64,000 bases of DNA from an uncultured Gammaproteobacteria bacterium (GCA_963759075.1 CAVWXZ010000018.1:49278-113277), one strand, 5' to 3'; numbered from the stretch's first letter, positions 5,479 through 22,352 are shown. Notes: generated from the sequence alone by a model not told the origin. Translations and numbers: made by a program.

Positions 5479-5506
5479 ACGTCCGGTAGCTGATGTGAGT
5501 GCTTAG

Positions 5507-6268: not shown

Positions 6269-6282
6269 TGGCGGCCTTGCTC

Positions 6283-6819: not shown

Positions 6820-6825
6820 GCGCCC

Positions 6826-9697
6826 TCACTCACCGCTGCACGCCGCCAGGATCCAGTCGTAAACAGGCTGGTAATCGGGCTCAGTGGTCATCCACACCGG
6901 AACGTCGTCCGCGGCGGGATCTTCGGGGTCATCAGCAACCGCGGGGTCATCCACCAGCGGATGCGCCGGTTGATCTTCGGGTCCGCTTACCGGGCGCAGC
7001 AGCAACATGCTGAGTTCCGGCTGGCAGGCATTGTTGACCATGCCAACGGTGACACTAAAGTCGCCTTCGACGCTGCCGGTCAGCACAAAGCGATTGGGTA
7101 CCACACCAGGATCGGGCGTTTCGCCGCCACCGCTACCACCGGGCCGGTGACAGCCGCTGCAGTTTTGCATCAGCACAGGCTGGACAGACCGTGCGAACAC
7201 ACCCTCGTCCAGGCCGTTTACGCCACCACGCAATTCGGACAGGGCGCGAAAGCCGTCGCCGTCTGCATCATCGAAAGGATCGTTGAAATACTGCGCGCCA
7301 AGATCGATCCATTCGGCGATCAGGCGCAGCTCCGAGGCATTCAGCATGCCACTATGATCAACAGTGGCAGTGGCCAGGGTTTGCGGCGCACGCAGCTGTT
7401 GTTCGAAAAGTTTTTGCACCAGGCCACTTGTGCGTGAACTCCGCGCCGAGCTGCCGGTGATCACCAGCGCGGGCTCGCGCACCAGTTCGAGCTCGCCGTC
7501 GTTGTTCATACGTACCACCGCACGACCGGTCACCGGATCTATAACCGGATCACCGATCAGGAGTTCCTCGTAGGAAAACACGCGGCCGGTGCCGGCCAGC
7601 GTGTCCTGCAGATCGAGGCCCGCCGACAGCGGATCAACGCGGATCGTTGCTGGCGTGACAGGTGACGCAGGTGTTAACACCACGGTCGTGCATCCACAGA
7701 GGCTGAATGTGCTCCGGATAGTTAATGATGCCGGCCACCGGAACGAGTGTTGCCAGCCCGCTGTAGTCGATGACCAGGTCAGGATCGGCTGCGCGCCCTG
7801 CCGCAACCTCATCGGTCCACACGTCCTGGAAAACCATGTGTGCCTTCAGGGCGAGATCCGGCGGGTTCAGGCGTGTGCGGGTTTCCGCCATGGATTCGCC
7901 GGGCTCGGCGCTCATCGTGACATTGGCATGTAAGCCGGCGATGGGCGTGGTGTTGAGCGCACTGCCGCGACGCGGTGAATGGCAGCCGTTGCAGGTGCGG
8001 GTTTCGCCCGGACGAACCTGCAGCCAGTTGGTGTGGGTCTGAAAAGCACGACCGTCTGCATCTACCACAGCAATGGCCAGCGGCGTATCGGCCGGCACCT
8101 CGATGCGCGCTGAACCATCCGGCTCAACCTCGGCGTAGCCGACAACCTGCTGCATCTCGAACATGGTTTCGCCGATGGCTTCGCGGGACACGCCGCGCGG
8201 CATGGGTACCGCCTTGCTCACTCTCAGAAAACGCGCGGGGCGCTCGGCCGCGGTGGTCATCGCCGGATCTTTGAGTAGGGCAATGTCGGCCACCTGGCCA
8301 CGGCTGTCGCCGGACGGCGGCGCGGTCATCGGCAAGGACTCACCCTGGACCAGAACACGCTGACCCATGATGTCCAGGCCATCGGTGTCATACACGCTCT
8401 TGATGTTGAGCACACCGAGACCCTGGCTTGCCAGGGATTGGTTCAGGCTTTTGTCGGCAATAACGTTCGGTACCGGGCGCGCAATGATGGCCACCGCATC
8501 CGTGAGTGCAAAGCCCTCGGGCGCAAGCACGACCGGACGCAAGGTCTGAGCGTCCATGTCGAACATGTAGATGCCGTAGACCGGATCGCCCTCCACCTCC
8601 ATCGGATCGCCGCTCACCGGATCGATCTCGGTGGCCGGCACGAACGGCGTCCAGCTCACCAGCGCGCGGTTAGTGCCGTCCCAGAGCGGGATAAGGCGTA
8701 GTGTAGCGCCCGGCCTCGGACACACCTCGGCCAAAGTCGATGTCGAACAGCGTCACCTGCTCCTGGCCTACGGCCCCTGCGGGCGCAGTGGCGGCAGGCT
8801 GGTTGTGCTCGGAAAAGTTGCGAATGTCCACGGCCATCAGGGCACCGCCTTCGCGCGTACCGGACAAGGGCATGAGCGAACTCAGCACGCGACCGTCCGG
8901 CATTTCTCGCGGGTGCAGAAAACTGTTGCCCGGACTGAAGGCACCGTATTGCACGAAGATATTGGTGCCGTCCGGATTGGTAAAGAAGATCGGGAAATGG
9001 TTGTTGCCGGCGACGTGATCCCAGCGTGCAAACATGATTTCACCGGTCGAGAGCACCGTCGGGTTGCGATCGTGACTCTGGTTGAAGGAGATCTGGCGAA
9101 TATCCGACGCCGTCGCCATCCATCACATGCAGCACGATGGAACGCTCACGCTCGTACTCATCGAGGAAGGCATAGGGCTCGGTGTTGTCCGCTTCGATCA
9201 ACTGGCGGGTTTTTTCCTGACGGTTGGAAGAAAACACGATGCGCCCGTCCGGCAGGTAAGCGGATCGACGTCGTCACCCAGATTGGCTGTAGCGTCATCG
9301 GCGATGACCCGCGTCAATGACTCGTCGCCAGCGATTCGTATTCCCAGACGTCGAAGGTGGGGTCGTTGGGGCCGCGCATGGCAAACAGCAAACGCTCGCC
9401 ATCAAAAGAGACTTCCGGGTCTGACACGTCACCCTGGCCGCCGGTGTAGCTTTCGGTGACGTTGCGCAGCGGCGCGGTCGGCGAAGACAGGTCGCGAATG
9501 AACAGATCGCCACCGGGACGAAACATGACGCCATCGGTCGGATTGCCGACCGCGGCGACGTCTCGCTGTACAAATGCCACGGCGAAGTCACCCTCGACTA
9601 CGATGGCGCTATCGGTGGTTTGCTCTTCCTGGCATGCTGCAAGCAGCACCAGGGCAGGCAGACAAATCCGAAGTTTCAAGTAGTCTGGAAAGATCAT
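6826..9697 (-). pseudogene. large (~957 codons) secreted beta-propeller / CXXCH protein, HzsA-related; frame broken at least 5 times
   Basis: The pieces read as one protein. 9314-9697 has a signal (LVLLAAC) and DLFIRDL..ERLLFAMRGP. Next come 9040-9237 and 8670-9119 (IMFARWDHVAGNNHFPIFFTNPDG). 7634-8734 has CNGCH and CVTCH, and 6826-7812 has CSGCH. It resembles proteins annotated as hydrazine-synthase alpha-subunit middle-domain relatives (from memory, not searched). Confidence 0.5.
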
Positions 9698-10030
9698 GAC
9701 CGTGCATCAGAGAGGGCTCCAGCCCGCTGCACGGGCCTGTTGAGCTGGGGTCAACAGTAGGCCGACGCAAAGCGCGGAGTACCGGGAGCAAGGAAGACGG
9801 GCAGTCTTCGGGAGCAGTGGCGACAGCAGAAACGTGCGCGTCCGTGCACAATGAGTACTTGTTGCCATCCTGGTAACTCCGCTGTCTTAGGGCGAACCCC
9901 GTAGACCGGTAGCTTTGCGTCCCCGCCTTTCGACGGGTTTGCCTTTGTCAGTTCGGCGCTCACACTCGCACAGCTGTAGGCAGTCGTCAACGCGTACGAA
10001 GCCAAAGTGTGACCTGCGTCACAGAAAGTT

Positions 10031-11050
10031 TTATATGTTAAAACAACTAGTTAGGGGCGTCTGGCTGCGCTTTTCGGCGGCGAGTCGGCAGGATTCAACT
10101 GACTGAATCCATGAGAGAAATGCAGCGCCTCGGCTGTCAACGACCACTGCTTCAAAGCCTTCCAGCCCGTCAATAACGGCCAGGCCTTCGGCGACACCGA
10201 GCACGAATACGCTGGTGGATAAGGCGTCGGTCAGCGTGCCGTCCGGCCCCACCACCGTGGCGGAGCGCACGGCGGACGGCGGACTTGCCTGTGCCGGGAT
10301 TAATGATGTGGTGATAGCGCTCGCCGTCCGCTTCGAAGTACCGCTCGTAGTCGCCCGAGGTTGAAATCGCCTCGTCACTAACGGCAGCAACGCTACCATT
10401 TCGCCATCACGCCGCGGATCACGAATGCCCACCCGCCAGGGACGACCCAAGACGGTCGCCCAACACGCGCGTGTCACCGCCGGCGCTGACCAGCGCATGT
10501 TCCACGCCACGCTCACGCAATATCGCAACGCCACGTTCCACTGCGTAGCCCTTGGCAATGCCGCCCAGGTCTATACGCACGCCCTCACGCGCAAAGGCGA
10601 CGGTACCACCCTCATCGTCAACAGAGACGAAACGGTAGTCAATCGACCTCAGCGCATCCTGCACGATCGCTTCGTCTGGCTTGACCCGCTCGCGATAGTC
10701 ATAAAGAAAGCCCACGCTGGCATAGGTAATGTCGAAGGCGCCCCGGGTACGCTCGGAGATCGTCTGCTGCCTTTCTGAATCAGCATGCGCAACTCGTCGC
10801 TGGCCACAACCGGGCCCGCGGCCGCCTCTCGATTGACGCGGGAGATCTCGCTTTCAGGTTTCCAGGTGCTCATCAGACGGTCGATGCGGTGCATTTCTTC
10901 GATGACGGCGGCAATGGCCAGTCTCGCCTTGGTTTCGGTCATCGGCCCAAACCTGCACCTGTATGGCCGTGCCCATGATGGCCTTTTCGGTTTGCAGCCA
11001 TTCCGCCGACTCGCCGGAACGGCCACCACCAGCGCGGCAAAAGCGAGCAA
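10031..11050 (-). pseudogene. apbE: FAD:protein FMN transferase ApbE; frame broken at least 4 times
   Basis: ApbE text is spread over three frames. 10649-11050 has EEMHRIDRLMSTWKPESEISRVN. 10419-10715 has DLGGIAKGYAVERGVAILRERGVEHALVSAGGD. 10031-10558 has LTDALSTSVFVLG. The N-terminal AEWLQTEKAIMGTAIQVQVW motif is only readable in an alternative frame. The start is TTG 11050 or up to 11070, and the 3' end is uncertain. Confidence 0.7.
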
Positions 11051-11074: not shown

Positions 11075-12052
11075 TCAAGCATCGTGACCCTCAATGACGT
11101 CCAACGGACTCGAAACGCCCTGCGCGCCTTTGTTGAGAACATGGGTATAGATCATGGTTGTGTTGACGTGCGAATGGCCGAGCAGTTTCTGCACAGTACG
11201 GATGTCGTAGCCATTTTCAAGCAGATGCGTCGCAAAACTGTGACGCAATACGTGCGCTGAAATCCGTTTCGTGAGGCCAATTCGTCGTGCCGCCTCTTTC
11301 AGCGCACGGCCAGGCGTTGACGGAGACGCGTGAAAACGTTGAATCTCCCCGGTCTGATGATTGGCGGTTCGCTTTGCGGCAGGAAACACAAATTGCCAGC
11401 GCCACTCACTGTCTGCACCGGGATATTTCCGGCCAAGCGCGTACGGTAGCGGTGCGCGACCGTAGCCGTCCTTCAGGTCGCGTCGGTGTATTGCCTCGAC
11501 CTGTTGCAGATGCACTTTCAGATGGTCCGCCAGGCTGGCCGGCAGAATTGTTACCCTGTCCTTGTTGCCTTTACCGCAACGAACTGTAATCTGGTGATAT
11601 CCGAAGTCGATATCCTTGACGCGCAGACGCAGACACTCCATCAGGCGCATACCTGATCCGTACAACAGCGATAGCATGAGCCATCTCGTACCGGCGACTT
11701 CGCCCAGCACCCGCCTGACCTCCTCGGCGGTGAGCACAACCGGCAAGCGTCTCGGACGCTTCGCACGATCAATGTCGGAAAGCCAAGGCAGCTCTATATC
11801 CAGGACTTTCTGATATAGGAACAAAATGGCGCTGAGGGCCTGGTTCTGCGTTGATGCCGCGACCCGTTTTTTGGTCGCCAGATGGTTCAAGAAAGCAGTC
11901 ACCTCGTGCGCGCCCATGTCGCGCGGGTGACGTTTGCCATGAAAAAGAATAAACCTCCGAATCCACTGAATGTAAGTCGCTTCCGTACGATAGCTAAAGT
12001 GCTTACGCCGGATAACCGTGCGCACCTCGTCAAGCAATCGTGGCCTGTGCAT
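11075..12052 (-). CDS. intI: integron integrase (tyrosine recombinase IntI), 325 aa
   Basis: ATG at 12052 with GGAGG 7 nt upstream. N-terminus: MHRPRLLDEVRTVIRRKHFSYRTEATYIQWIRRFILFH. IntI-specific insertion text: YALGRKYPGADSEWRWQFVFPAA. Catalytic context: AHVLRHSFATHLL..LLGHSHVNTTMIYTHV. It is divergent from an attC-bounded cassette array. Confidence 0.9.
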   Translation of the reverse strand: MHRPRLLDEVRTVIRRKHFSYRTEATYIQWIRRFILFHGKRHPRDMGAHEVTAFLNHLATKKRVAASTQNQALSAILFLYQKVLDIELPWLSDIDRAKRPRRLPVVLTAEEVRRVLGEVAGTRWLMLSLLYGSGMRLMECLRLRVKDIDFGYHQITVRCGKGNKDRVTILPASLADHLKVHLQQVEAIHRRDLKDGYGRAPLPYALGRKYPGADSEWRWQFVFPAAKRTANHQTGEIQRFHASPSTPGRALKEAARRIGLTKRISAHVLRHSFATHLLENGYDIRTVQKLLGHSHVNTTMIYTHVLNKGAQGVSSPLDVIEGHDA

Positions 12053-12199
12053 CCTTGCACCTCCTGAGTATCTGATCTTGGGTGTTTTCCCCCATTGCCT
12101 CGAACTAAACGAGTGTCTAAAGTAAGCATGAGGAACGCAAGACGCAGAGTACAAGGCGCCAGGCAAATTCGCCAAACTGCCAGACCCAGGCCTGGCGTT

Positions 12200-12291
12200 G
12201 TTAAACAATTGATTTAACGGGAGAAGACCGTGGGCCAGCCAGCGCTCCGCAAATTCGCTTTTTGCGTTGAGCCTTCTATTAATAGTTAGGC
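12200..12291 (+). other. attI-like region; putative crossover core GTTAGGC at 12285-12291
   Basis: This is the first GTTRRRY core downstream of the divergent intI start. It is preceded by the inverted repeat GTTAAAcaattgaTTTAAC (12200-12218). The first cassette ORF starts at 12414. Confidence 0.45.
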
Positions 12292-12413
12292 CGCATCTGG
12301 AGCGCTGCAGCCGCCGTCCGTCAGCTGCGCAGATCTTCAGTACTACTTGGACAGATTCGGCTGGCAGCTCAAGTACGCCATTCAAATATTTTTAGGACGA
12401 GGCGGTATAAAAA

Positions 12414-12815
12414 ATGCCAATGCAAGAATCAATGTCAATTGACCTTGTCTACCAAGCGATCTACGAGGCGCTCAATCTCTCGGATTCGACGCTACAGATT
12501 TGGATGACATTTACGTTTGCACTCATTGCTGCAGCGCACTTGGGGGGAAGTCGCATAAACGGATCTACATACAAACTTGTATCGAGTTTGTACGGGGTCT
12601 ACGCAGGCGTTCTGGTTGTTAAATATGTCAGCGCAGCTCATCAAATACTGCACTATCAAAATGTAATGAACCTGCGTGGATTCGAGCCGTGGCCCGTCCC
12701 TAAACCAGTTGGAGCTATCATTGGAGCAGGCACATTGCTACTCATGGTTGGAGGAACTATAGCGACCCTATGGTTCGTTAACAAAATCCGGCGAGAGAAT
12801 AGTGCTGATCAGTAA
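12414..12815 (+). CDS. cassette 1: small membrane protein, 133 aa, unknown function
   Basis: Intact ORF with 3-4 hydrophobic segments (IWMTFTFALIAAAHLGG, LYGVYAGVLVV, GAGTLLLMVGGTIATLWFV). It is the first ORF after attI. Confidence 0.6.
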   Translation: MPMQESMSIDLVYQAIYEALNLSDSTLQIWMTFTFALIAAAHLGGSRINGSTYKLVSSLYGVYAGVLVVKYVSAAHQILHYQNVMNLRGFEPWPVPKPVGAIIGAGTLLLMVGGTIATLWFVNKIRRENSADQ

Positions 12816-12912
12816 CGTGTCAGCGAAACCTTCACAAGAGCTCCTTGTCGACAGGCGACAGAGACGGAGTGGAAGTCATATGCTTTTTCGAATAGTTGCC
12901 GTCCGATTAGGC
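12810..12912 (+). repeat. degenerate attC-like site (CAGTAAC ... ATTAGGC)
   Basis: The left end AGTAACGTGTCAGCG and right end GTTGCCGTCCGATTAGGC resemble the consensus ends of the neighbouring attC sites. The R-prime core has A instead of G. Confidence 0.35.
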
Positions 12913-12920
12913 GCACTATT

Positions 12921-13301
12921 ATGAGCCAGTTACTTCGTCGTGCCCTATATGTGCTTTTTGGAGTACTCCCCTGCGCGGGCGCTATAACCTTCATTTTCTA
13001 TGCCCTGGCGCATCCGGAAAAACAAGTCAGTTTCTCCTTCGCGGTTTTCAGCACCCTCTCGCTCATCGGTTTTGTCTCCGGTCTAGTCGCAGTTCTCTTT
13101 ATGAACAGTTTGAAACCAAACAGTCGCCGCATCATTCGATTCGGTGTAATAGCGGGATCAGTCATCTATTTTCCGTTCGCCGTTTTCGGCCTCTTGTATC
13201 TCCGGTCTTTTTTATTGCTCGCGCCCCTCATGGTCGGTATTGCACTTACATTTGAACTTAGTGCGCCTAACAAGGCGCTGCAGCGGACGGAACATGAATA
13301 A
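12921..13301 (+). CDS. cassette 2: small membrane protein, 126 aa, unknown function
   Basis: Intact ORF with four hydrophobic helices. The last 12 codons (..APNKALQRTEHE) are encoded by the attC site. Confidence 0.6.
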   Translation: MSQLLRRALYVLFGVLPCAGAITFIFYALAHPEKQVSFSFAVFSTLSLIGFVSGLVAVLFMNSLKPNSRRIIRFGVIAGSVIYFPFAVFGLLYLRSFLLLAPLMVGIALTFELSAPNKALQRTEHE

Positions 13302-13352
13302 AGTGCAACAAAAGAGCGACGGCGTTGCCGCCGCTGAGCTTGGACGTTAGGT
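13265..13352 (+). repeat. attC site (88 bp, subfamily A)
   Basis: GCCTAAC AAGGCGCTGCAGCGGACGG ... GCCGCCGCTGAGCTTGGAC GTTAGGT. It has RYYYAAC and GTTRRRY cores with imperfect internal dyad symmetry. Confidence 0.8.
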
Positions 13353-13376
13353 GGCTACAGGAGGCGTTGTTTTGGA

Positions 13377-14048
13377 ATGTCGGTGAATACTCGGGCACGC
13401 ATCGTCGAAGGGGGCGTCATCGTCGGGAGCATTCTCCTTGCGTTCGCGATTGACGCAGGCTGGTCGGCTCGGGGCGAGGCGCGGGACCAGGCGGTGATCC
13501 GGGGTGCCTTGTACTCCGAGATGCAGTCCACCGTCGACCGCATCGATGGGCACTTGGAACGTCGGCGTCAGTTCGCGGAATCGCTGGCGACCTTCCTCGG
13601 GTCGTCACCCACCGCACTGGCCGACCTTAGTTCGGATTCGGCCGGAAGTCTCCTGAGATCACTGACATTTCTTGCTCCGTTCACGGCCTCGATTGACCCC
13701 GTCCGCTCCGCCGACGTCGCGAGACTGGACGACGTTGCGCTCCGGACCCTGCTTGGTGACTGGATGGGCGCCGCTGAGAACGTGGCCGAGGATCAGACGT
13801 TCCTTGTAGCCGCCTCCATCGAACTAGCCAGGCTCTCCGGACTCGTTGGAGGACCTCGCGCCCTCTCGAGGTTCGACTTTCCGGAGGTGCCGCAGCCCAA
13901 TGTGGGCCTAAGCCGACTGCGATCGGAGGGCCAGTTCGTCGACGCCATACTGGTCTTCGATAGAAGGGAGCAAAACAACCTCCGGAAGATCCGCGAACTC
14001 CGTGAACACACGGTGTCGGTTCTGTTCCAACTGGAGTCCAGACGGTAG
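13377..14048 (+). CDS. cassette 3: N-terminally anchored protein, 223 aa, unknown function
   Basis: Intact ORF with AGGAGG 9 nt upstream of the ATG. It has one N-terminal TM segment (GGVIVGSILLAFAIDAGW) followed by a helical soluble domain. Confidence 0.6.
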   Translation: MSVNTRARIVEGGVIVGSILLAFAIDAGWSARGEARDQAVIRGALYSEMQSTVDRIDGHLERRRQFAESLATFLGSSPTALADLSSDSAGSLLRSLTFLAPFTASIDPVRSADVARLDDVALRTLLGDWMGAAENVAEDQTFLVAASIELARLSGLVGGPRALSRFDFPEVPQPNVGLSRLRSEGQFVDAILVFDRREQNNLRKIRELREHTVSVLFQLESRR

Positions 14049-14053
14049 TAGCC

Positions 14054-14171
14054 ACCTAACAAGGAATTGCTGCTGACGCGGTCTGCTCAAAAGGTCCGGA
14101 GTTGTTCGGCTTGCACCTCACAACTCCGGGTCAGCATCTTGGTCGCGCAGCAGAATTCCGGGTCGTTAGGT
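14054..14171 (+). repeat. attC site (118 bp, subfamily B)
   Basis: ACCTAAC AAGGAATTGCTGCTGACGCG ... CGCGCAGCAGAATTCC GGGTC GTTAGGT. The arms pair with two unpaired left-arm bases, as expected for attC extrahelical bases. Confidence 0.8.
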
Positions 14172-14175
14172 CTGC

Positions 14176-14204
14176 TTGACGCGTAAATACGTTGTACGTA
14201 CAAT
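14176..14204 (+). promoter_or_regulatory. cassette-internal sigma70-like promoter with palindromic operator
   Basis: TTGACG (14176-14181), a 17-nt spacer, then TACAAT (14199-14204). The perfect 12-bp palindrome TTGTACGTACAA (14192-14203) overlaps the -10. The ATG at 14211 is 6 nt after the -10. Confidence 0.45.
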
Positions 14205-14210
14205 GTACAT

Positions 14211-14720
14211 ATGCTTAAGTTCGAATGGGATACAAGGAAGGATGCCTCGAACCGCCGGAAACATGGCGTTTCTTTTGAGGAAGCTCAAACGGTTTTCTTT
14301 GACGAATTCGCCACACAGTTTTACGACAATGAGCATTCGGGAGACGAGGATCGTTTCATCATGCTGGGCTTAAGTAGCCAGCTACGAATCCTGGTCGTTT
14401 GTCACTGCGAAAAATCGGGTGGCAACATCATACGGATCATCTCTGCAAGGAAGGCGACGAGATCTGAACGCAAATTTTACGCCGGTGACAAAACGATGAA
14501 AGCTGAATACGATTTTTCAAAGATGAAGGGGCGAAAGAACCCGTATGCATCAAAGTTGAAAAAGCAGGTCACAATTCGCATGAGTGAAGATGTGATCGGT
14601 TATTTCAAAGACATGGCAGAAGAAACCGGAATACCGTACCAGAGCCTGATTAATCTTTATTTGCGCGATTGCGTATCCAAGCATCGCAAGATTAACCTAA
14701 AGTGGGCAACGCAGACCTAA
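14211..14720 (+). CDS. brnT: cassette 4: in-frame BrnT toxin-BrnA antitoxin fusion ORF, 169 aa
   Basis: The N-terminal 90 aa are BrnT/DUF497 (MLKFEWDTRKDASNRRKHGVSFEEA..IIRIISARKATRSERKFY). The C-terminal part from M96 (14496) is BrnA (MKAEYDFSKMKGRKNPYASKLKKQVTIRMSEDVIGYF..YQSLINLYLRD). The paralogous cassette at 17109-17617 has the two genes separate. Confidence 0.75.
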   Translation: MLKFEWDTRKDASNRRKHGVSFEEAQTVFFDEFATQFYDNEHSGDEDRFIMLGLSSQLRILVVCHCEKSGGNIIRIISARKATRSERKFYAGDKTMKAEYDFSKMKGRKNPYASKLKKQVTIRMSEDVIGYFKDMAEETGIPYQSLINLYLRDCVSKHRKINLKWATQT

Positions 14721-14803
14721 CAAGGCGCTGCAGCGGACGGAGGAAACATAAAGTGCAAGCAGTGAAAAAGGCGGCGTGTAGCCGCTGAGCTAAGACGTTA
14801 GTC
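14715..14803 (+). repeat. attC site (89 bp, subfamily A)
   Basis: ACCTAAC AAGGCGCTGCAGCGGACGG ... GTAGCCGCTGAGCTAAGAC GTTAGTC. The TAA inside the left core is the stop codon of the fusion ORF. Confidence 0.75.
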
Positions 14804-14814
14804 AGCTTTTTCGC

Positions 14815-14843
14815 TTGTTGCGTGATGCGCACCGTGCTACACT
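14815..14843 (+). promoter_or_regulatory. cassette-internal sigma70-like promoter (higBA)
   Basis: TTGTTG (14815-14820), a 17-nt spacer, then TACACT (14838-14843). The ATG at 14850 is 6 nt after the -10. Confidence 0.4.
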
Positions 14844-14849
14844 AATGGC

Positions 14850-15128
14850 ATGATTAAGTCATTTCGCCACAAGGGACTGCGGCGTTTTTACATAAGTGGA
14901 AGCAAGGCAGGGATTCAATCCAAGCACGCTTCTCGCTTACGAATGCAATTGGCCGCTCTTGATACAGCTCATACTATAGAAGACATGGATATACCGGGTT
15001 ATCGACTACACCCGCTGAAAGGTCGAAAGAAACGACGTTGGTCAATTTGGGTGAGCGGAAATTGGCGTCTTACATTTGAAATTGAGGATGGCAACATCCA
15101 TGTCATTGATTACGAGGACTACCACTGA
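14850..15128 (+). CDS. higB: cassette 5: HigB-type toxin (RelE/ParE superfamily, plasmid-maintenance killer family)
   Basis: MIKSFRHKGLRRFY..LDTAHTIEDMDIPGYRLHPLKGRKKRRWSIWVSGNWRLTFEIEDGNIHVIDYEDYH, 92 aa. Its stop overlaps the start of higA (ATGA). Confidence 0.8.
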   Translation: MIKSFRHKGLRRFYISGSKAGIQSKHASRLRMQLAALDTAHTIEDMDIPGYRLHPLKGRKKRRWSIWVSGNWRLTFEIEDGNIHVIDYEDYH

Positions 15129-15448
15129 TGTCTATGCATAATCCGCCGCATCCAGGTGAGTTTATTAAGGCAACTTATATTGCTCCTTTTGAGATTAGCA
15201 TTCGCTCGCTCGCGGAGAGTCTGGACGTATCGCCCTCAACGTTGACCCGTGTTATTAACGGTCGTAGTGGAATTAGCCCCGAGATGGCATTGAGGCTTGC
15301 CAAGGCGCTTGGTCGGTCTCCTGAGAGTTGGCTGGCTATGCAGCACAGCTATGACCTATGGCATGCCAAGAAATCGGCGAATCTGACTGATGTTCAGAAG
15401 GTTCGGTTTGAAGCTGCCGACCATATCGCTGCAGCGGACGGATCATGA
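15128..15448 (+). CDS. higA: HigA-type antitoxin (XRE HTH)
   Basis: HPGEFIKATYIAPFEISIRSLAESLDVSPSTLTRVINGRSGISPEMALRLAKALGRSPESWLAMQ. The last codons run into the attC site. Confidence 0.8.
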   Translation: MSMHNPPHPGEFIKATYIAPFEISIRSLAESLDVSPSTLTRVINGRSGISPEMALRLAKALGRSPESWLAMQHSYDLWHAKKSANLTDVQKVRFEAADHIAAADGS

Positions 15449-15503
15449 ATAGAGTGCAACAGAATTGCATCGGCGTTGCCGCCGCTGAGCTTGTACGTTA
15501 GGT
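15416..15503 (+). repeat. attC site (88 bp, subfamily A) with degenerate left core
   Basis: GCCGACC ATATCGCTGCAGCGGACGG ... GCCGCCGCTGAGCTTGTAC GTTAGGT. The left core is GACC instead of TAAC. Confidence 0.65.
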
Positions 15504-15552
15504 CGCTCCTTCCCGACGCTACGCATCGAAGATTTGGTGGACGAAGCCGCCA

Positions 15553-15771
15553 CTATTCTCCGTACTGAAACACCTTCTCGAGTGGCGCGTGGAACACGCG
15601 AGCGATCCTGAAGGCGACTTCCAGCGATGGGGAGTACTTGTTCCTCTCGATCGCGTTGACGGTCTGACGCGTGACGCCGATGCGGTCCGCCAACTCCTGC
15701 TGCGTCATCTCACCATGCTGAAATCGAAGGACGCGGATCTCGTTCGTGATGAGGCCACCGGACTTGCCCAT
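15553..15771 (-). CDS. cassette 6 (inverted): short XRE-family HTH regulator, 72 aa
   Basis: IRVLRFQHGEMTQQELADRIGVTRQTVNAIERNKYSPSLEVAFRIARVFHAPLEKVF. Its start lies 3 nt downstream of the stop of the membrane-protein gene. Confidence 0.75.
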   Translation of the reverse strand: MGKSGGLITNEIRVLRFQHGEMTQQELADRIGVTRQTVNAIERNKYSPSLEVAFRIARVFHAPLEKVFQYGE

Positions 15772-15774
15772 GGA

Positions 15775-16188
15775 TCAGGCACCCCGACGGTACATGACGA
15801 GTTGCGACCCGATCTCGACGAGCTGCGCGATCACCCAGAAGCCGAGCAGCACGTGAGTGAAAAGGAAGTTTCCCTCCGAGACCACGGCCAGGCAAAGGGC
15901 GAAGAAGACTCCAGTCGCCAGAACGTACCCGGCGTTGCGCATGCCTTTCAGCTGAATCAGCGTGTCTCGCTCGTCGGTGGTCGAACGACGGTCCACGACG
16001 GCGATCACCACGTGTCCGGCGATCTGTATCGCCACGAGCACGACGACCGCGAGGACGAACAGTGCTACATCCTGCGGCATGACATTTGCCGCGTCGCTCG
16101 GCAGCACACTGGCAAAGTAGAATGCAAAGACTGCGACGAGGCTACCGCCCATCAGCCACAGGCTCTTCTCTTGAAACGACAGGTCCAC
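15775..16188 (-). CDS. 4-TM membrane protein partner of the XRE regulator, 137 aa
   Basis: GTG start with AGGAGG upstream and four hydrophobic helices. The gene order (membrane protein, then short XRE) matches 49236-49884. The upstream palindrome TGACAnnnTGTCA lies at 16218-16230. Confidence 0.6.
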   Translation of the reverse strand: MDLSFQEKSLWLMGGSLVAVFAFYFASVLPSDAANVMPQDVALFVLAVVVLVAIQIAGHVVIAVVDRRSTTDERDTLIQLKGMRNAGYVLATGVFFALCLAVVSEGNFLFTHVLLGFWVIAQLVEIGSQLVMYRRGA

Positions 16189-16308
16189 GACGGCCTCCTA
16201 GTGGTGTCTGGATAATATGACAGTGTGTCAAATAAACACGACAGGCTCGAGATGTCAACTATTTGCGACACGGCGGAGCTGAATCGGGCTATGGCAAGCG
16301 TCGGAGCG

Positions 16309-16407
16309 ACCTAACAAGCGATTGCTACTGACGCCGAAGAAGGGGTAGGTACGCGCTTCGCGCTTGCGGGGGTGCGGGCGGCGCAGCAGAATCGCGAGAC
16401 GTTAGCC
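16309..16407 (+). repeat. attC site (99 bp, subfamily B)
   Basis: ACCTAAC AAGCGATTGCTACTGACGCCG ... CGGCGCAGCAGAATCGC GAGAC GTTAGCC. The arms pair, leaving bulged left-arm bases. Confidence 0.75.
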
Positions 16408-16426
16408 AGCATAAAAAGGCACATTC

Positions 16427-16456
16427 TTGACGTGTATGTACATTTGTGCATATACT
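16427..16456 (+). promoter_or_regulatory. cassette-internal sigma70-like promoter (second brnTA family)
   Basis: TTGACG (16427-16432), an 18-nt spacer, then TATACT (16451-16456). The ATG at 16464 is 7 nt after the -10. Confidence 0.4.
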
Positions 16457-16463
16457 TCCTTCA

Positions 16464-16733
16464 ATGGACTACGAATGGGATCCGGCCAAGGCCCAGGCCA
16501 ACCTCCAAAAGCACGGCGTTGATTTCGCCGATGCCGTCATTGCTCTTGAGGATGAACTGGCGCTAACACAACCCGATCCCGACTCTGTTGACGAGGAAAG
16601 ACTGATTTCTCTTGGCATGGACGCAATCGGTCGCTTACTGGTTACGGTGTTTACCTACCGCAGCGATCGCATACGAATCATTTCCTCTCGAAAAGCGAAA
16701 CGGTCGGAATGCCGACGCTACGAGGAAAACTAA
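16464..16733 (+). CDS. brnT: cassette 7: BrnT-family toxin (DUF497), divergent paralog
   Basis: MDYEWDPAKAQANLQKHGVDFADAV..RIRIISSRKAKRSECRRYEE. The start is taken at the MDYEWD ATG rather than the upstream ORF start at 16446. Confidence 0.75.
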   Translation: MDYEWDPAKAQANLQKHGVDFADAVIALEDELALTQPDPDSVDEERLISLGMDAIGRLLVTVFTYRSDRIRIISSRKAKRSECRRYEEN

Positions 16734-16734
16734 T

Positions 16735-16989
16735 ATGCGTGACGAATACGATTTCAGTAAGGCCAAGCGTGGTTCGGTTGTCAAATCGCCAACCGGAAAA
16801 ACCCGCATTACAATTCGCATTGACGACGATCTATTGGCTTGGTTCAAGGACCAGGTGAACAAGGCCGGCGGTGGAAATTATCAGACGCTGATTAACCAAG
16901 CTCTCCGTGAATTCATTTCTCAGAGCAATGAACCGCTCGAAGCGACCCTTCGCCGAGTGCTCCGCGAAGAACTGCGAGATGCTGGCTAA
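16735..16989 (+). CDS. brnA: BrnA-family antitoxin
   Basis: MRDEYDFSKAKRGSVVKSPTGKTRITIRIDDDLLAWFKDQVNKAGGGNYQTLINQALREF. The ATG is 1 nt after the brnT stop. The TAA stop lies in the attC left core. Confidence 0.75.
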   Translation: MRDEYDFSKAKRGSVVKSPTGKTRITIRIDDDLLAWFKDQVNKAGGGNYQTLINQALREFISQSNEPLEATLRRVLREELRDAG

Positions 16990-17069
16990 CAAGGCGCTGC
17001 AGCGGACGGAGGACAGATAAAGTGCAATTGAAAACAGCGGCGTGCCGCCGCTGAGCTTAGACGTTAGGT
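16984..17069 (+). repeat. attC site (86 bp, subfamily A)
   Basis: GGCTAAC AAGGCGCTGCAGCGGACGG ... GCCGCCGCTGAGCTTAGAC GTTAGGT. Confidence 0.8.
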
Positions 17070-17073
17070 CTGC

Positions 17074-17102
17074 TTGACACGTAAATACGTTGTACGTACA
17101 CT
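17074..17102 (+). promoter_or_regulatory. cassette-internal sigma70-like promoter (duplicate brnTA)
   Basis: TTGACA (17074-17079), a 17-nt spacer, then TACACT (17097-17102). A GTACGTAC palindrome sits in the spacer. The ATG at 17109 is 6 nt after the -10. Confidence 0.45.
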
Positions 17103-17108
17103 GTACGT

Positions 17109-17393
17109 ATGCTCAAGTTCGAATGGGATACAAGGAAGGATGCCTCGAACCGCCGGAAACATGGCGTTTCTTTTGAGGAAGCTCAAACGGTTTTCTTTGA
17201 CGAGTTCGCCACACAGTTTTACGACAATGAGCATTCGGGAGACGAGGATCGTTTCATCATGCTGGGCCTAAGTAGCCAGCTACGAATCCTGGTCGTTTGT
17301 CACTGCGAAGAATCGGGTGGCAACATCATACGGATCATCTCTGCAAGGAAGGCGATGAGATCTGAACGCAAATTCTATGCTGGTACAAAATGA
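17109..17393 (+). CDS. brnT: cassette 8: BrnT-family toxin, 94 aa
   Basis: About 94 percent nucleotide identity by eye to 14211-14495. It ends ..RKFYAGTK with a TGA that overlaps the brnA ATG. Confidence 0.8.
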   Translation: MLKFEWDTRKDASNRRKHGVSFEEAQTVFFDEFATQFYDNEHSGDEDRFIMLGLSSQLRILVVCHCEESGGNIIRIISARKAMRSERKFYAGTK

Positions 17394-17617
17394 TGAAAGC
17401 TGAATACGATTTTTCAAAGATGAAGGGGCGAAAGAACCCGTATGCATCTAAGCTGAAAAAGCAAGTAACCATTCGCATGAGCGAAGATGTCATTGGCTAT
17501 TTCAAAGGCATGGCAGAGGAAACCGGAATACCCTACCAGAGCCTTATTAATCTTTATTTGCGCGATTGCGTGTCCAAGCATCGCAAGATCAGCCTCAAGT
17601 GGGCAACGCAGACCTAA
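17390..17617 (+). CDS. brnA: BrnA-family antitoxin, 75 aa
   Basis: MMKAEYDFSKMKGRKNPYASKLKKQVTIRMSEDVIGYFKGMAEETGIPYQSLINLYLRD. The TAA stop lies in the attC left core. Confidence 0.8.
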   Translation: MMKAEYDFSKMKGRKNPYASKLKKQVTIRMSEDVIGYFKGMAEETGIPYQSLINLYLRDCVSKHRKISLKWATQT

Positions 17618-17699
17618 CAATGCGCTGCAGCGGGCGGATCATGAATAAAGTGCAACAAAAGAGCGACGGCATTGCCGCCGCTGAGCTTAGACGTTAGGT
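17612..17699 (+). repeat. attC site (88 bp, subfamily A)
   Basis: ACCTAAC AATGCGCTGCAGCGGGCGG ... GCCGCCGCTGAGCTTAGAC GTTAGGT. The centre is nearly identical to the site at 13265. Confidence 0.8.
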
Positions 17700-18039
17700 G
17701 GCTTTGAAAAGCACCGCAGTTCTGGCATTGGCACTTCTCGCGGGCGCGTCGGTTTCTGCCGGCGCCGAGAACAATATAGCAGGCTGCCGATACGATCTTG
17801 ACGTGCTGAACAAGGTCATACCCGCCTATCCGTATGTCGAATTTTCGCCGTTGGAAGGATATGTAGTCTTGGACTTCATCGTAAACAAGGCGGGACACCC
17901 AATAGATATCACGGTCGTGGGGTCGTCGAGTAAAATCTTTCATCGTTCGGCTATCGCAGCAATGAGTGGCTGGCTTTTCGAGCCGCCCGGAAGGCCGTGT
18001 CGCCGAGTGTTTCGAATGGAGTATTTGTTTGAAAACTGA
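17698..18039 (+). CDS. cassette 9: secreted TonB C-terminal-domain-like protein, 113 aa
   Basis: Signal peptide MALKSTAVLALALLAGASVSAGA. TonB_C-like text: PAYPYVEFSPLEGYVVLDFIVNKAGHPIDITVVGSSSKIFHRSAIAAMSGWLFEP. The GTG start overlaps the GTTAG-GTG core of the preceding attC. Confidence 0.55.
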   Translation: MALKSTAVLALALLAGASVSAGAENNIAGCRYDLDVLNKVIPAYPYVEFSPLEGYVVLDFIVNKAGHPIDITVVGSSSKIFHRSAIAAMSGWLFEPPGRPCRRVFRMEYLFEN

Positions 18040-18138
18040 ATGCGACAAGGCGCTGCGGCAGACGTTTGACCCGGCCAGCCGGTCGGCTGTCGCCAAACGC
18101 CTGTCCGCCTCAAATGCTGCTTGGCTTAGACGTTGGGT
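18040..18138 (+). repeat. attC site (99 bp) with degenerate left core
   Basis: ATGCGAC AAGGCGCTGCGGCAGACG ... GCTGCTTGGCTTAGAC GTTGGGT. Confidence 0.6.
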
Positions 18139-18181
18139 GGCACTGGAGAAGTCTTAACAAGCTCATGAGCAGGGGGAGCTT

Positions 18182-18661
18182 ATGGAAACGGAAACGATGA
18201 TATTAAGTTGGGAGAACCCGGTGTTTCTGACCTATGTTCTCGCGGCATCGGTCATGCTGTTGAAGCTCGCGCTTCAACCTTGGATGACTGTTTATCGAAT
18301 GATGAAAGTTCGCGGTGGGTTTCGCAGTCCGGAGGATGCCAGGAAAAGCCCTTTGAATCCGCATCCTGAGTCAGGCCAGCTTGAACCGAACGAGTATGTC
18401 GAACGATCTCGCCGCATGAATCTGAATGACTTGGAAAACATACCGGCCTTTCTCGTGGCGGGACTACTGTTTGTGCTTACGGAGCCGCCGTTGGTGCTTG
18501 CGCATGTGCTTTTATGGGCCTTTGTAGCATCACGCGCGGCGCACTTCATAGCCTATGCCACAGCGCAGCTGCATGATGTACGAGCCACACTTTGGACCGT
18601 GAGTTCGTTTTCAGTTATCACGATGGTAGTGTATACGCTCATCTACGCGGCAACTCTCTGA
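18182..18661 (+). CDS. cassette 10: MAPEG-family membrane protein (microsomal glutathione S-transferase-like)
   Basis: 159 aa with 4 TM segments and ERSRRMNLNDLENIPAFLVAGLLF, resembling the MGST RxHxNxxENxxxF motif. Confidence 0.65.
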   Translation: METETMILSWENPVFLTYVLAASVMLLKLALQPWMTVYRMMKVRGGFRSPEDARKSPLNPHPESGQLEPNEYVERSRRMNLNDLENIPAFLVAGLLFVLTEPPLVLAHVLLWAFVASRAAHFIAYATAQLHDVRATLWTVSSFSVITMVVYTLIYAATL

Positions 18662-18675
18662 TAGGACGCGGTGCC

Positions 18676-18775
18676 ACCTAACAAAGAGGTGGAGCCGACA
18701 GTCAAAGAGCGTCACGTCCTTTGCATGCGGAAAGGCCGCGCCACTTTTGTGCGCGGCTCCTCCCCGACGTTAGGA
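18676..18775 (+). repeat. attC site (100 bp)
   Basis: ACCTAAC AAAGAGGTGGAGCCG ... GCGCGGCTCCTCCCCGAC GTTAGGA. The GGAGCCG / CGGCTCC arms pair. Confidence 0.7.
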
Positions 18776-18856
18776 AGCCGTGCAGGGCACAGGAAGTAAG
18801 TGGCTTCCAAATATTGCTTTCCTGAAAGAGCAACTCTTGAAGGAACAGAAAGCCAT

Positions 18857-20647
18857 ATGAACCGAGTTTATTTTATAGTTGTTGTATTGGCCGCTGTTCT
18901 TATCGGTTGCGGTAGCACCGGTTCTCGGTCCGACGAGGGCGCACCAGATCCGGCCAGTGAAGCAGTGATTCACGAGTCCGAAATCGCCGAGAGGGTCGAT
19001 CGCTATCTCTCGGCTATGGAATCGCTCGGCTTTTCCGGGGCAATCATCGTCGACCACGAGGGTGATGTGGTGCTGCGCAAAGGGTACGGGTTCGCAGACC
19101 GTGAGACGCGTCGTCCCTATAGGCCCACGACCGTCCAGTCACATGGGTCGATCACCAAGCAGATGACGGCTGCAGCTATCCTCTTGCTCGAGTCTCGTGG
19201 CGATCTCTCTGTCGACGATTCGATCGAGCTGTTCTTCGACGAGGTTCCGGAAGACAAGCGAGGCATTACCCTTCACCAGCTCCTGACGCACTCTTCCGGT
19301 ATGTCCGGAGGGATCGGTCCCGACGACGAGCCCATCGCGGCACAGGCCTACATAAAGCGCGCGATGGCAGAACCTCTTGGGTTCGAACCGGGCACGGGAT
19401 ACGGCTATTCCAATGTCGGGTACGCGCTGCTGGGTCTCATCGTGGAACGGGTGTCGGGAGAGACGTACGAGGCATTTCTGCGCCAGCAGCTACTGTTGCC
19501 TGCCGGGCTGGCCGATACGGGATACGTGTTGCCCGAGTGGGAACGAGATCGGGTCGCGGTGGGCTACCGGAATGGCGAGCGCTGGGGATATGTGCATGGG
19601 CGCGGCTGGCTCGAAGACGGGCCGAATTGGAATCTGCGCGCCAACGGCGGCCTTCACACTACCGTCAACGACATGAACAGGTGGCTGAATACTGTCCGGG
19701 GTCAGGGGGTGTTGAGCGCCGAAGCAACCCGACGCTGGACCACGGGCTACGTCAAAGAGGAGAGCAGTGAATCCCGGTACGGCTATGGCTGGGTGGTGCG
19801 CGATACCCAATGGGGTAGGATGATCAACCACGGTGGCAGCAACCTCATCTTCTCCGCCGAGCTTGTCTGGCTGCCGGACCAGGATTTGTTCTTCTATATT
19901 CAGGGCAACGCGTCGATGATCTCTACGTCGATGATCTCTGCATTGGGGCAACGCGACCGGCTTCTCGCTGCCGCGTTCGATGCTGAGTTTCTTGTACCGC
20001 CTCTGGTCGAGCCCGACCCTGATGCCCGCCCGGAAGACGCCAGCGAGCGGGCAGGAAACTACCATCTGGATGAGGGGGCGCTGGAACTGACGGCCGACGA
20101 CACGCGGCTTGTCGCCAAGCTCTCCGGCCAGGCAGTGCTGAACGCCATGTTGGATCCTGCTGAGGAGCAGCGAACGCGGTTTGCAGAACTCAACCGGCGC
20201 ACCAGAGATGCAATGGATAGGTTGGAAGCGGGCCAGGAGGACGCGCTTGCAGGCATGATCCGCGCGAATGAAGATCCAGTCGAACTCACCCGCCCCTTCC
20301 TGGACCGTATCTCTCAAATCAGCAGCCAATTCGGTGACCTGCAATCCCTGCATCTGATCGGTTCCTTTGAGAATGTTCCGGGCTCGCGCTTTGCTGACCT
20401 TGGACCTTGGACTACGTTCGTGTATGCAGAGTTTGAGCACTGGAATCAGTACTGGAACCTCATCTGGAACAGCGATGGCACCTATCGTGGAAACTGGAGC
20501 GGATCCTGGCCGTCATTAATCCTGGTCCCGACGGCGGAGGGGCGATATACAGGCGTCGGGCAGGAGCCACCCTGGCAGACTGTAGAACTTCGTTTCGAAG
20601 ATGAATGCCTCGTGGCCACAGAGCTGCGTGCCTGCCGGGAGAAATAG
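18857..20647 (+). CDS. cassette 11: beta-lactamase-family serine hydrolase lipoprotein with a ~250-aa C-terminal extension
   Basis: Start taken at MNRVYFIVVVLAAVLIGC (lipobox). SxxK motif: GSITKQ. YxN motif: YGYSNVGYALLG. HGG at INHGGSN sits in the KTG position. About 596 aa in total. Confidence 0.7.
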   Translation: MNRVYFIVVVLAAVLIGCGSTGSRSDEGAPDPASEAVIHESEIAERVDRYLSAMESLGFSGAIIVDHEGDVVLRKGYGFADRETRRPYRPTTVQSHGSITKQMTAAAILLLESRGDLSVDDSIELFFDEVPEDKRGITLHQLLTHSSGMSGGIGPDDEPIAAQAYIKRAMAEPLGFEPGTGYGYSNVGYALLGLIVERVSGETYEAFLRQQLLLPAGLADTGYVLPEWERDRVAVGYRNGERWGYVHGRGWLEDGPNWNLRANGGLHTTVNDMNRWLNTVRGQGVLSAEATRRWTTGYVKEESSESRYGYGWVVRDTQWGRMINHGGSNLIFSAELVWLPDQDLFFYIQGNASMISTSMISALGQRDRLLAAAFDAEFLVPPLVEPDPDARPEDASERAGNYHLDEGALELTADDTRLVAKLSGQAVLNAMLDPAEEQRTRFAELNRRTRDAMDRLEAGQEDALAGMIRANEDPVELTRPFLDRISQISSQFGDLQSLHLIGSFENVPGSRFADLGPWTTFVYAEFEHWNQYWNLIWNSDGTYRGNWSGSWPSLILVPTAEGRYTGVGQEPPWQTVELRFEDECLVATELRACREK

Positions 20648-20725
20648 AGTGCCGGCGGTCCGAGAGCGGGCGGTTGTTGCAAGAGGCACAGGAATCACGA
20701 CCGAGGAGCCAAGTGGAGCCTGGCT

Positions 20726-20810
20726 TCCTAACAAGGCGTTGCGCCTGGTAAATGTGCCGGGTAAGGCGAGGATATTCGTTTTGGACCCAGGTCGCCGCCT
20801 CCGAATAGGA
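20726..20810 (+). repeat. attC-like site with inactivated right core (AATAGGA)
   Basis: TCCTAAC AAGGCGTTGCGCCTGG ... CCAGGTCGCCGCCTCCG AATAGGA. The arms are complementary, but GTT is replaced by AAT. Confidence 0.45.
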
Positions 20811-20820
20811 AATTGCCAGA

Positions 20821-21456
20821 ATGTTACAGATAGCCAGAGTCATTTGGGTCACAATAGGCGCCTCGTTATTGGTGGGGAATGCTGTGGCCACGGAGGAAGC
20901 GAAATATACGGTGCTCCGTGAAGAAGACGGATTCGAACTGCGACTATACGAATCCCACATTCTCGCCGAGACCATGGTGAAAGGCGACTTTGAAGATGCG
21001 GGTAATGAAGCATTTGGTCGTTTGTTTAAATACATTTCTGGTAACAATGAGCAGCAGCAAAAAGTTGCGATGACATCTCCTGTCGGACAAGAAGCATCGA
21101 GTCAGAAGATCGAGATGACATCACCGGTAAGCCAGCAAAAGCAGGATGGCAAGTGGGTTGTCAGCTTCATGATGCCTGCGTCATTCACCCTGGAAACAAC
21201 TCCTGAGCCGAAGGATCCGAGTGTCTCTATTCGCCAGGTTCCGGCACGTCACATTGCCGCGGTACGTTATTCCGGTTTTTGGAACGAAAAGGGTTACCGT
21301 CGCAACTTAACAAAACTTCAGAATTGGATAGAAAGAAGTGGCTTAAAGCCGCTAGGCGAACCGCTTTGGGCACGTTACAACCCTCCGTTTATGCCTTGGT
21401 TCCTGCGTCGAAATGAAATCCTGGTGCAGGTTGCATCCCCAGAATCAGGCGATTGA
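20821..21456 (+). CDS. cassette 12: SOUL heme-binding family protein, secreted
   Basis: Signal peptide, then EEAKYTVLREEDGFELRLYESHILAET..AFGRLFKYISGNNEQQQKVAMTSPV..ARYNPPFMPWFLRRNEILVQV. Confidence 0.7.
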   Translation: MLQIARVIWVTIGASLLVGNAVATEEAKYTVLREEDGFELRLYESHILAETMVKGDFEDAGNEAFGRLFKYISGNNEQQQKVAMTSPVGQEASSQKIEMTSPVSQQKQDGKWVVSFMMPASFTLETTPEPKDPSVSIRQVPARHIAAVRYSGFWNEKGYRRNLTKLQNWIERSGLKPLGEPLWARYNPPFMPWFLRRNEILVQVASPESGD

Positions 21457-21472
21457 GCATGGTGCAGTTGAC

Positions 21473-21570
21473 GCCCAACAAGGCGTTGCATCGGACCATT
21501 GCGCTGCCACGCATTTGGCTGCAGCGAAATGCGAGTCAGCCTCAATTTCAGATGAACCTTGGCATTAGGC
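21473..21570 (+). repeat. attC-like site (98 bp), right core ATTAGGC
   Basis: GCCCAAC AAGGCGTTGCATCGGACC ... GAACCTTGGC ATTAGGC. This is the last attC-type element I can recognise. Confidence 0.5.
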
Positions 21571-21584: not shown

Positions 21585-22352
21585 ATGAAGCGTACGTCGA
21601 CGATCATTAACCCTTTAGGAAACCAAATGCGACGCCTGCTTTGTTGTACGGCTGTTGCGCTATTTATCTCTGGTTGCGCAACTTACATACCGCCCGGCGC
21701 GAAAGCTGATTTCGATGCTTTTGCGCCCCCGGATATCCAGGCCGGATTCGCTGCCAGGCCTACGAACCCTTTTCCGGGAAGCATCGCCGTCGTAAGGGTC
21801 CAGTCCCCAACGTACACCAACTATTACCTGCAGCAACGCGGTGGAATTTACGGCACGGGTCGTTATTCAGTCGTTCTCACGAAAGAGGCCGACGAGGACA
21901 AACAGCTTGAGCGTGTGACGAAGCTTCCACAGCTCACAGGGCTGGTAACTATCAATCGAATGCTCCTGCCCGAGCAGCTGGAAAGTGACAACGAGATTCG
22001 GGCAGCTGCGTCGCGCCTTCAGGCCGACCTGCTGTTCTTGTACACCTTTGACACGTCATTCTTCGATTCCGACAAGTCAAAGCCTCTGAGTGTAATAACA
22101 CTCGGCCTCTCGCCTACGCGAAAGATTTCTGCGATCACTACATGCTCGGCTCTTTTGCTGGATACCCGCACCGGATATATATATTCAGCGTATGAAGTCA
22201 CGGAAAGGGCGGAAACATTCTCGACATCATGGGGCGCCCGGGATACAGCGGACGAGGCACGTCGAAACAACGAGCGGGAGGCTTTCAAAAAGCTAAGCGA
22301 TGAATTCATCAGCTCGTGGCCGAAGCTACTCGAGCGCTATGACGAGCACTGA
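21585..22352 (+). CDS. cassette 13: lipoprotein of unknown function, 255 aa
   Basis: ATG at 21585 with AGGAGA upstream, and lipobox VALFISGC. The longer ORF start at 21453 lies inside the attC and was not used. Confidence 0.55.
   Translation: MKRTSTIINPLGNQMRRLLCCTAVALFISGCATYIPPGAKADFDAFAPPDIQAGFAARPTNPFPGSIAVVRVQSPTYTNYYLQQRGGIYGTGRYSVVLTKEADEDKQLERVTKLPQLTGLVTINRMLLPEQLESDNEIRAAASRLQADLLFLYTFDTSFFDSDKSKPLSVITLGLSPTRKISAITTCSALLLDTRTGYIYSAYEVTERAETFSTSWGARDTADEARRNNEREAFKKLSDEFISSWPKLLERYDEH

Follow-up and report, generated by a model that had tools for sequence, protein, structure and literature searches.

The stretch of DNA analysed here, 64,000 nucleotides (nt) from an uncultured Gammaproteobacteria bacterium (GCA_963759075.1 CAVWXZ010000018.1:49278-113277; hereafter the window), carries between positions 11075 and 21570 an integron integrase gene, intI, an adjoining attI recombination site and an array of 11 cassettes that runs rightwards to 21570. 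The intI gene occupies 11075-12052 on the minus strand and is followed by the intI-attI intergenic region (12053-12291, plus strand), in which a core GTTAGGC is found at 12285-12291. Each of the 11 cassettes ends in one of 11 attC-type sites, all on the plus strand. We interpret this element as a sedentary chromosomal integron (SCI), with a probability a little above 0.9.

An open reading frame (ORF) at 11075-12385 on the minus strand holds the 325-residue integrase, whose start at 12052 lies behind an AGGAGG ribosome-binding site and whose sequence includes the motif YALGRKYPGADSEWRWQFVFPAA. The protein matches the NCBIfam model TIGR02249 'integron integrase' over its full length (1-314 of 315) with 458.4 bits, against a cutoff of 265, and contains Pfam domains PF13495 and PF00589. 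Its best match among solved structures is VchIntIA (2a3v, E 8e-83), to which it is about 45% identical by a rough estimate from that alignment. The single gap, of one residue, precedes the IntI-specific insertion; residues 190-240 are aligned without gaps across the insertion, and the catalytic R, K, HxxR, H and Y positions are all kept. A XerC/XerD dimer resolvase was considered and rejected, given the presence of the insertion and scores of 149-154 bits with the XerC and XerD models, far below their cutoffs of 330-335. The original prediction had called a 325-residue tyrosine recombinase with an integron-specific insertion, and had named likeness to XerC/D and loss of the insertion as grounds for abandoning it; on both counts the call holds. 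The nearest database relatives of IntI are 62-76% identical. Exact-protein look-ups of IntI, of GlmS and of a GTG-start version of BrnT from the array gave no match, and the ATG-start version of BrnT was matched.

The 11 attC sites share a common layout, R''(7)-spacer(5)-L''(3+bulge+6+bulge+3)-variable loop-L'(12)-spacer-R'(7), in which the spacer between L' and R' is 6 nt long, or 8 nt in sites b and e. A generic scan for RYYYAAC...GTTRRRY combined with a folding-energy threshold failed to separate these sites from the G+C-rich background, and covariance models were therefore adopted: R1, built from 10 sites of the window, and R2, built from 112 attC sites of other genomes only. A full-length MAFFT alignment misregistered the 3' arms of sites b and e, so trimmed, arm-only sequences were used instead. 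In the window, R2 gives full-length plus-strand matches of 86-118 nt at the exact coordinates of nine sites, with E between 1.2e-13 and 2.1e-4. These are a (13265-13352; 63.7 bits, E 3.8e-13), b (14054-14171, 118 nt; E 3.5e-10), c (14715-14803; E 6.1e-10), d (15416-15503, with a degenerate R'', GCCGACC; E 3.8e-7), e (16309-16407; E 2.7e-9), f (16984-17069; 65.8 bits, E 1.2e-13), g (17612-17699; E 8.5e-12), i (18676-18775; E 2.1e-4) and the terminal site k (21473-21570, R' ATTAGGC; E 1.7e-4). The two remaining sites are decayed. Site h (18040-18138, R'' ATGCGAC) has E=6 with R2 and 0.011 with R1, which was trained on it, and site j (20726-20810, R' AATAGGA, L' mispaired) has no match with R2.

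R2 finds nothing else below E 0.9 in the 64 kb on either strand. In about 66 kb of relatives' DNA that lies outside integrons (control loci L083 and L085-L087) it has no match at E<=0.1, and in a further locus, L084, it has a single marginal one (E 0.037); all 17 significant matches of that search fall in the intI locus L081. R1 matches only the attC sites in the window, all on the plus strand, and in 80 loci around the intI genes of other genomes it finds 126 matches clustered in arrays beside intI. Rfam offers no attC family. Covariation in the arm-only alignment of 10 sites points the same way, with 89.5% of the stem cells paired and compensatory changes in 9 of the 19 pairs; 0 of 500 shuffles did as well, and sliding the partner by 1-3 columns reduced pairing to 26-46%.

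Folding of the bottom strands as DNA gives a more mixed picture. The expected hairpin forms in a, b, e, g, i and k and partially in d and j; in c, f and h it is not the structure of minimum energy. Fold z-scores are -6.5 for b, -3.6 for i and -2.1 for k, and are modest for the 88-nt family of sites. Wherever the hairpin forms, both bulges lie on the same arm, in site e the 3' arm of the bottom strand; the single unpaired bases originally noted on one arm of the sites at 14054 and 16309 are seen in the folds, and at most other sites as well.

The features expected of integron attC sites are accordingly present: inverse RYYYAAC/GTTRRRY cores, paired L'' and L', extrahelical bases on one arm, lengths within 57-141 nt, clustering and common orientation. 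This agrees with the earlier description of imperfect palindromes of 85-118 nt that follow short co-oriented ORFs, start RYYYAAC and end GTTRRRY, and the covariance matches whose absence had been named as grounds for rejection are significant with both R1 and R2. The count differs. Twelve sites and 13 cassettes had been proposed, and the sole candidate for an extra site, at 12811-12912, does not fold (z +1.0) and has no match to R1 or R2; we therefore count 11 sites and 11 cassettes.

Evidence that the cassettes have moved comes from a sister genome (ENA ERZ25039499 contig_14208; loci L081 and L082), which has the nearest IntI on a long contig. Its IntI is 68% identical to that of the window, its intI also adjoins apbE, and the 10 kb beyond are collinear with positions 488-11050 of the window at 70-90% amino-acid identity; across intI and apbE the DNA identity is 69.8%. 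Three cassettes common to both genomes, by comparison, have 93.8-97.8% nucleotide identity. Cassette 6 (window 16399-17068, L082 9936-10607) is 97.8% identical, and the identity begins within the upstream site's R' core and ends within the cassette's own, with unrelated sequence on either side. Cassette 2 is 96.7% identical to L082 16040-16935 and cassette 3 is 93.8% identical to L082 15482-16115, the two standing in opposite order in the two genomes. The sister array is larger, with at least 31 attC sites over 18.8 kb, all co-oriented and of the same two size classes as in the window. Metagenome contigs, moreover, switch partner at 13264, 14801, 16311 and 17612.

The R'-core breakpoints and the swapped order are those of discrete mobile cassettes bounded at G|TT. 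Cassettes 94-98% identical with a backbone at about 70% imply transfer long after the two lineages split; together with the swapped order and the partner changes of the contigs, this implies IntI-mediated cassette movement well after their divergence. Cassette traffic can thus be read from public data alone, from near-identical cassettes in a backbone of about 70% DNA identity and from breakpoints that fall exactly at the attC crossover. IntI is predicted to be active in this very strain.

Hairpin formation, strand choice, cutting at R' and resolution by replication make up the established integron mechanism. Applied to this array, the bottom (minus) strand of each attC would fold into a hairpin, in which the two bulged bases (T-N6-C here) would tell IntI which strand to bind. 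IntI would then cut at the R' core, so that cassettes would be excised by attC x attC and inserted at attI by attI x attC recombination, the single-strand exchange being resolved by replication.

The attI core was originally placed at 12285, divergent from intI, and environmental contigs confirm it by breaking there. A contig from run X2 is 100% identical to window positions 12285-12479, in front of which it carries GCTTAGAC, an attC 3' spacer, implying that cassette 1 also exists behind another cassette. A contig from run X3 equals 12202-12290 and then continues into unrelated sequence, implying a different first cassette at the same attI. From these junctions, at 12285 and 12290, the crossover is placed at G|TTAGGC, between 12285 and 12286. 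When the attI regions of the window and L082 are aligned with MAFFT, the sister genome retains TAGTAGTTAG and diverges after it. Positions 12072-12099, 20-47 nt upstream of the intI start, form a conserved block of 28 nt in which the sister genome differs only by C/G at 12077, amid sequence that diverges; the block was not found in the other 80 intI loci. It is overlapped by a weak TTGCCT-N17-TAAAGT (12094-12122, plus strand) that faces the cassettes and whose spacing is conserved in L082. This may be a candidate for the cassette promoter, Pc, and the 28-nt block could have a promoter role; Pc itself and any stress regulation are putative. In many related loci (L023, L027, L028, L041, L045, L067 and others) the attC arrays are found on the intI strand, downstream of the gene, an 'inverted integrase' arrangement, whereas here the two are divergent.

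The original prediction did not recognise the attC family, which is in fact not new. It matches the environmental '59-be' consensus represented by the cassette-PCR (polymerase chain reaction) primers HS286 and HS287 (Stokes et al. 2001; sequences quoted in PMC2669170), and resembles the attC sites of many environmental integrons. The likeness extends to both arms of the 88-nt family, which match HS286 and HS287 within 2-3 mismatches at 5 and 3 sites, respectively, where about 0 would be expected by chance. The HS287 mismatch falls at the second extrahelical base, where the primer has G, the canonical T-N6-G pattern, and the window has C (T-N6-C).

This base is C in 11/11 sites of the window, and T-N6-C is also the majority pattern among the 112 foreign sites beside the intI genes of relatives (86, against 25). 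The canonical mobile attC sites of aadA1 and aadA7 have an identical geometry (R''7-spacer5-3 bp-bulge-6 bp-bulge-3 bp, with an unpaired central spacer of 5/6 nt) and likewise carry both bulges on the same bottom-strand arm, but differ in having G as the second extrahelical base. T-N6-C sites are recombined well by IntI1, IntI3, IntI2*179E and SonIntIA and are rare among mobile cassettes (PMC3053210). In the numbering of that study, our IntI has K, R, K, Y and W at the positions contacting the second extrahelical base, as in IntI1 and not as in VchIntIA. T-N6-C, the commoner pattern beside the relatives of this IntI, is possibly the norm in environmental integrons.

The cassettes, numbered 1 to 11 from attI and ending in sites a to k in that order, lie on the plus strand with one exception. 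Cassette 1 (12286-13346) carries small membrane-protein ORFs at 12414-12815 and 12921-13301, for which there is no significant Pfam match (one sub-threshold MFS_1) and no NCBIfam match. Cassette 2 (13347-14165) encodes a 223-residue protein of unknown function (13377-14048); its depth is about 47x in metagenome run X5, where intI is at about 5x, and it is present in contigs of two metatranscriptomes. Cassette 3 (14166-14797) has a single 169-residue ORF (14211-14720) in which BrnT and BrnA are fused (Pfam BrnT_toxin and BrnA_antitoxin). Cassette 4 (14798-15497) encodes HigB (14850-15128) and HigA (15128-15448; Pfam HigB-like_toxin and HTH_3). Cassette 5 (15498-16401) is the only one in reverse orientation, with an HTH_3 regulator (15553-15771) and a 137-residue membrane protein (15775-16188) on the minus strand and its attC top strand on the plus strand. 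Cassette 6 (16402-17063) carries BrnT (16464-16733) and BrnA (16735-16989). Cassette 7 (17064-17693), with BrnT (17109-17393) and BrnA (17390-17617) matched by Pfam, duplicates cassette 3 at 91-97% (repeat families D1 and D2).

Toxin-antitoxin pairs are thus found in 4/11 cassettes, and they probably stabilise the array. Further along are a TonB C-terminal domain protein (17698-18039; Pfam TonB_C) in cassette 8 (17694-18132), a MAPEG-family membrane protein (18182-18661; Pfam MAPEG) in cassette 9 (18133-18769), a 596-residue serine hydrolase of beta-lactamase fold (18857-20647; PF00144, 206 bits) in cassette 10 (18770-20804) and a SOUL haem-binding family protein (20821-21456; Pfam SOUL) in cassette 11 (20805-21570). 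The hydrolase was considered as a resistance gene and rejected, scoring far under every curated beta-lactamase cutoff (for class C, 59 bits against 415). The curated NCBIfam resistance-gene (beta-lactamase) thresholds are passed by 0 cassettes, and no clinical relevance was found.

How faithful is the sequence itself? In apbE, in a PD40-like gene, in glmU and in atpD the coding sequence is spread over 2-3 frames (8670-11050 and 53116-56447), and environmental contigs differ from the window by 1-nt indels at 9109, 9261, 10449, 11004, 11008, 11066 and 14489, so that the window probably carries assembly indel errors. The difference at 14489, where a contig from run X4 is one base shorter, falls inside the BrnT-BrnA fusion. 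BrnT and BrnA are separate in cassette 7 (17109-17617) and in the L082 copy, and a 1-nt insertion with one substitution explains the fusion in cassette 3. The fusion may therefore be an indel artefact, as may a truncated DUF3224 gene and some of the attC defects.

Several observations weigh against a straightforward reading of the locus as an SCI. In runs X1 and X2, the sequence directly after 14053, that is, after the cassette 2 ORF, is not attC b. Short, repeated attC sites could mislead an assembler, and artefacts may affect both the order of the cassettes and some 'degenerate' details. A strict sigma-70 consensus scan around attI gave no Pc or Pint, and no CTGT-N8-ACAG LexA box was seen in the attI region, which was read by eye only. 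Finally, four sites depart from the core consensus, with R'' degenerate in d and h and the crossover triplet changed from GTT to AAT in j and ATT in k, and part of the array may be frozen; cassettes 8-11 may have been immobilised by the decayed distal sites h, j and k.

Some of the same observations suggest an alternative, that the integron is real but has become a decaying, inactive relic in this strain, the shared cassettes recording past activity only. Besides the degenerate cores and the negative promoter scan, R2 misses h and j, and cassettes 9-10 were not found in any of the eight sediment metagenome and metatranscriptome runs compared with the window. We consider this unlikely. IntI is full length with every catalytic position intact, the seven proximal sites are all matched by R2 at E<=4e-7, the near-identity of the shared cassettes implies their transfer long after the split, and environmental contigs show different first cassettes at the same attI. 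As to the two sites missed, h has a 73% identical counterpart in L082 (19037-19129) that is itself a significant attC, and the 5' arm of j has 0 mismatches to the attC family motif.

Does the array extend beyond 21570? From 21.6 to 39.6 kb there are about 25 small accessory genes on the plus strand, including three GNAT acetyltransferases, a glyoxalase, GFA, DUF1203, DUF1697 and DUF2269 proteins, a methyltransferase and a GGDEF protein. Their shared orientation, small size, lack of relation to one another and cassette-like functions, and a G+C content under that of the flanks, as in the array, raise the idea that these 18 kb are fossil cassettes that have lost their attC sites. Such an origin is possible but unsupported, and a longer array is in our view quite improbable. 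With filters off, R1 and R2 find no attC past site k (best match E 1.2), and motif matches outside the array are at chance level. For the first gene past k, which encodes a lipoprotein (21585-22352), there are more than 480 homologues of 73-84% identity; those on two long contigs have unrelated, non-integron surroundings with no significant attC (no match in L083, the one marginal match in L084). Almost no ORF of the 21.6-39.6 kb region has a homologue in the 81 integron loci, and the DNA between about 39.6 kb and glmS (39.6-53 kb) has a collinear, attC-free counterpart next to glmS in two relatives with a 90% identical GlmS. We conclude that the array ends at 21570.

The last alternative is that the integron is a mobile one, of classes 1-5, or belongs to a Tn7-like element inserted downstream of glmS. 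It draws on the position of the whole region past the stop codon of glmS, on the side where Tn7 classically attaches, and on another intI found 1.3 kb from glmU-atpCD, but is most improbable, since IntI scores 338.7 bits with the NCBIfam integron-integrase equivalog NF011946 (curated cutoff 435), which we take to represent the class-1 type, since the ORFs scanned at 21.6-51 kb include no transposase-, TnsABC- or resolvase-type Pfam family (several glmS-adjacent ORFs being matchless), and since the left flank is collinear chromosomal backbone in the relative with the 68% identical IntI. That other intI, in L060 (1051-5820) from another metagenomic bin, encodes a different integron integrase, 52% identical to ours, 1.3 kb from glmU-atpC-atpD; the atp-glmUS neighbourhood hosts integrons in more than one lineage. 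The stretch of the window just downstream of glmS is variable and has two short tandem duplications, at 49918-49987 (35 nt x 2, 100%) and 50831-50946 (58 nt x 2, 91%).

A sedentary chromosomal location is supported, at the level of sequence comparison, by the fixed position of intI next to apbE and by the collinear left flank in one relative. It had been proposed originally from the lack of transposition genes, and among the ORFs scanned outside intI there is indeed no Pfam family of transposase, integrase or Tn7 type, several ORFs being matchless. As to the comparison of synteny between apbE and glmS that was suggested at the time, intI-apbE and some 10 kb of flank are collinear in one relative and 39.6-53 kb in two others. 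The original interpretation is thus supported, apart from the number of sites and the remark on the attC family.

The element is a genuine but ordinary chromosomal integron, of a kind already well known. It resembles other Proteobacterial SCIs (the Vibrio cholerae superintegron and those of Xanthomonas, Pseudomonas and Shewanella) in its divergent intI and attI, its co-oriented array, its many toxin-antitoxin cassettes among mostly unknown functions, its fixed site among related genomes and its 88-nt attC family, which accounts for 5/11 sites and recurs in the sister array. It differs in size, with 11 cassettes where the sister genome has at least 31 and Vibrio more than 100, and, probably, in orientation.

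A bottom strand on the lagging-strand template is the orientation that raises cassette excision. The parAB-atp-glmUS cluster lies at the window's right end (54500-63500), on the minus strand, and the GC skew of the plus strand is negative in both flanks, so replication probably proceeds from right to left. This would put the attC bottom strands on the template of the lagging strand and cause the cassettes to be transcribed head-on; judged by gene orientation and skew, the lagging-strand placement is probable. It is a minority arrangement, found in 5/30 SCIs, all with <=22 cassettes (PMC5371416). Tentatively, this lineage may keep sizeable arrays (11 cassettes, and at least 31 in the sister genome) in a possibly unfavourable orientation, some 40 kb from the origin-proximal parAB-atp-glmUS cluster, although we regard this as rather doubtful. 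If true, this would be a chromosomal integron with naturally high turnover, which a heavy load of toxin-antitoxin pairs (4/11) keeps together and whose attC sites are T-N6-C throughout.

GlmS is 86-90% identical to proteins of metagenome-assembled genomes (MAGs) labelled 'Gammaproteobacteria' and 73-77% identical to Steroidobacteraceae MAG proteins, and the runs that hold parts of the sequence are marine and beach sediment metagenomes. With the window, one more chromosomal integron is well documented, in a gammaproteobacterial lineage that is uncultured and lives in sediment, and nothing found in the window changes the understanding of integrons.

Finally, a c-di-GMP-I riboswitch (RF01051) is located at 9869-9953 on the minus strand, between apbE and the PD40-like gene, and is the only Rfam match, at 83.5 bits against a gathering threshold of 35. 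Many metagenome and metatranscriptome contigs match the window only in a stretch of about 50 nt of this riboswitch region.

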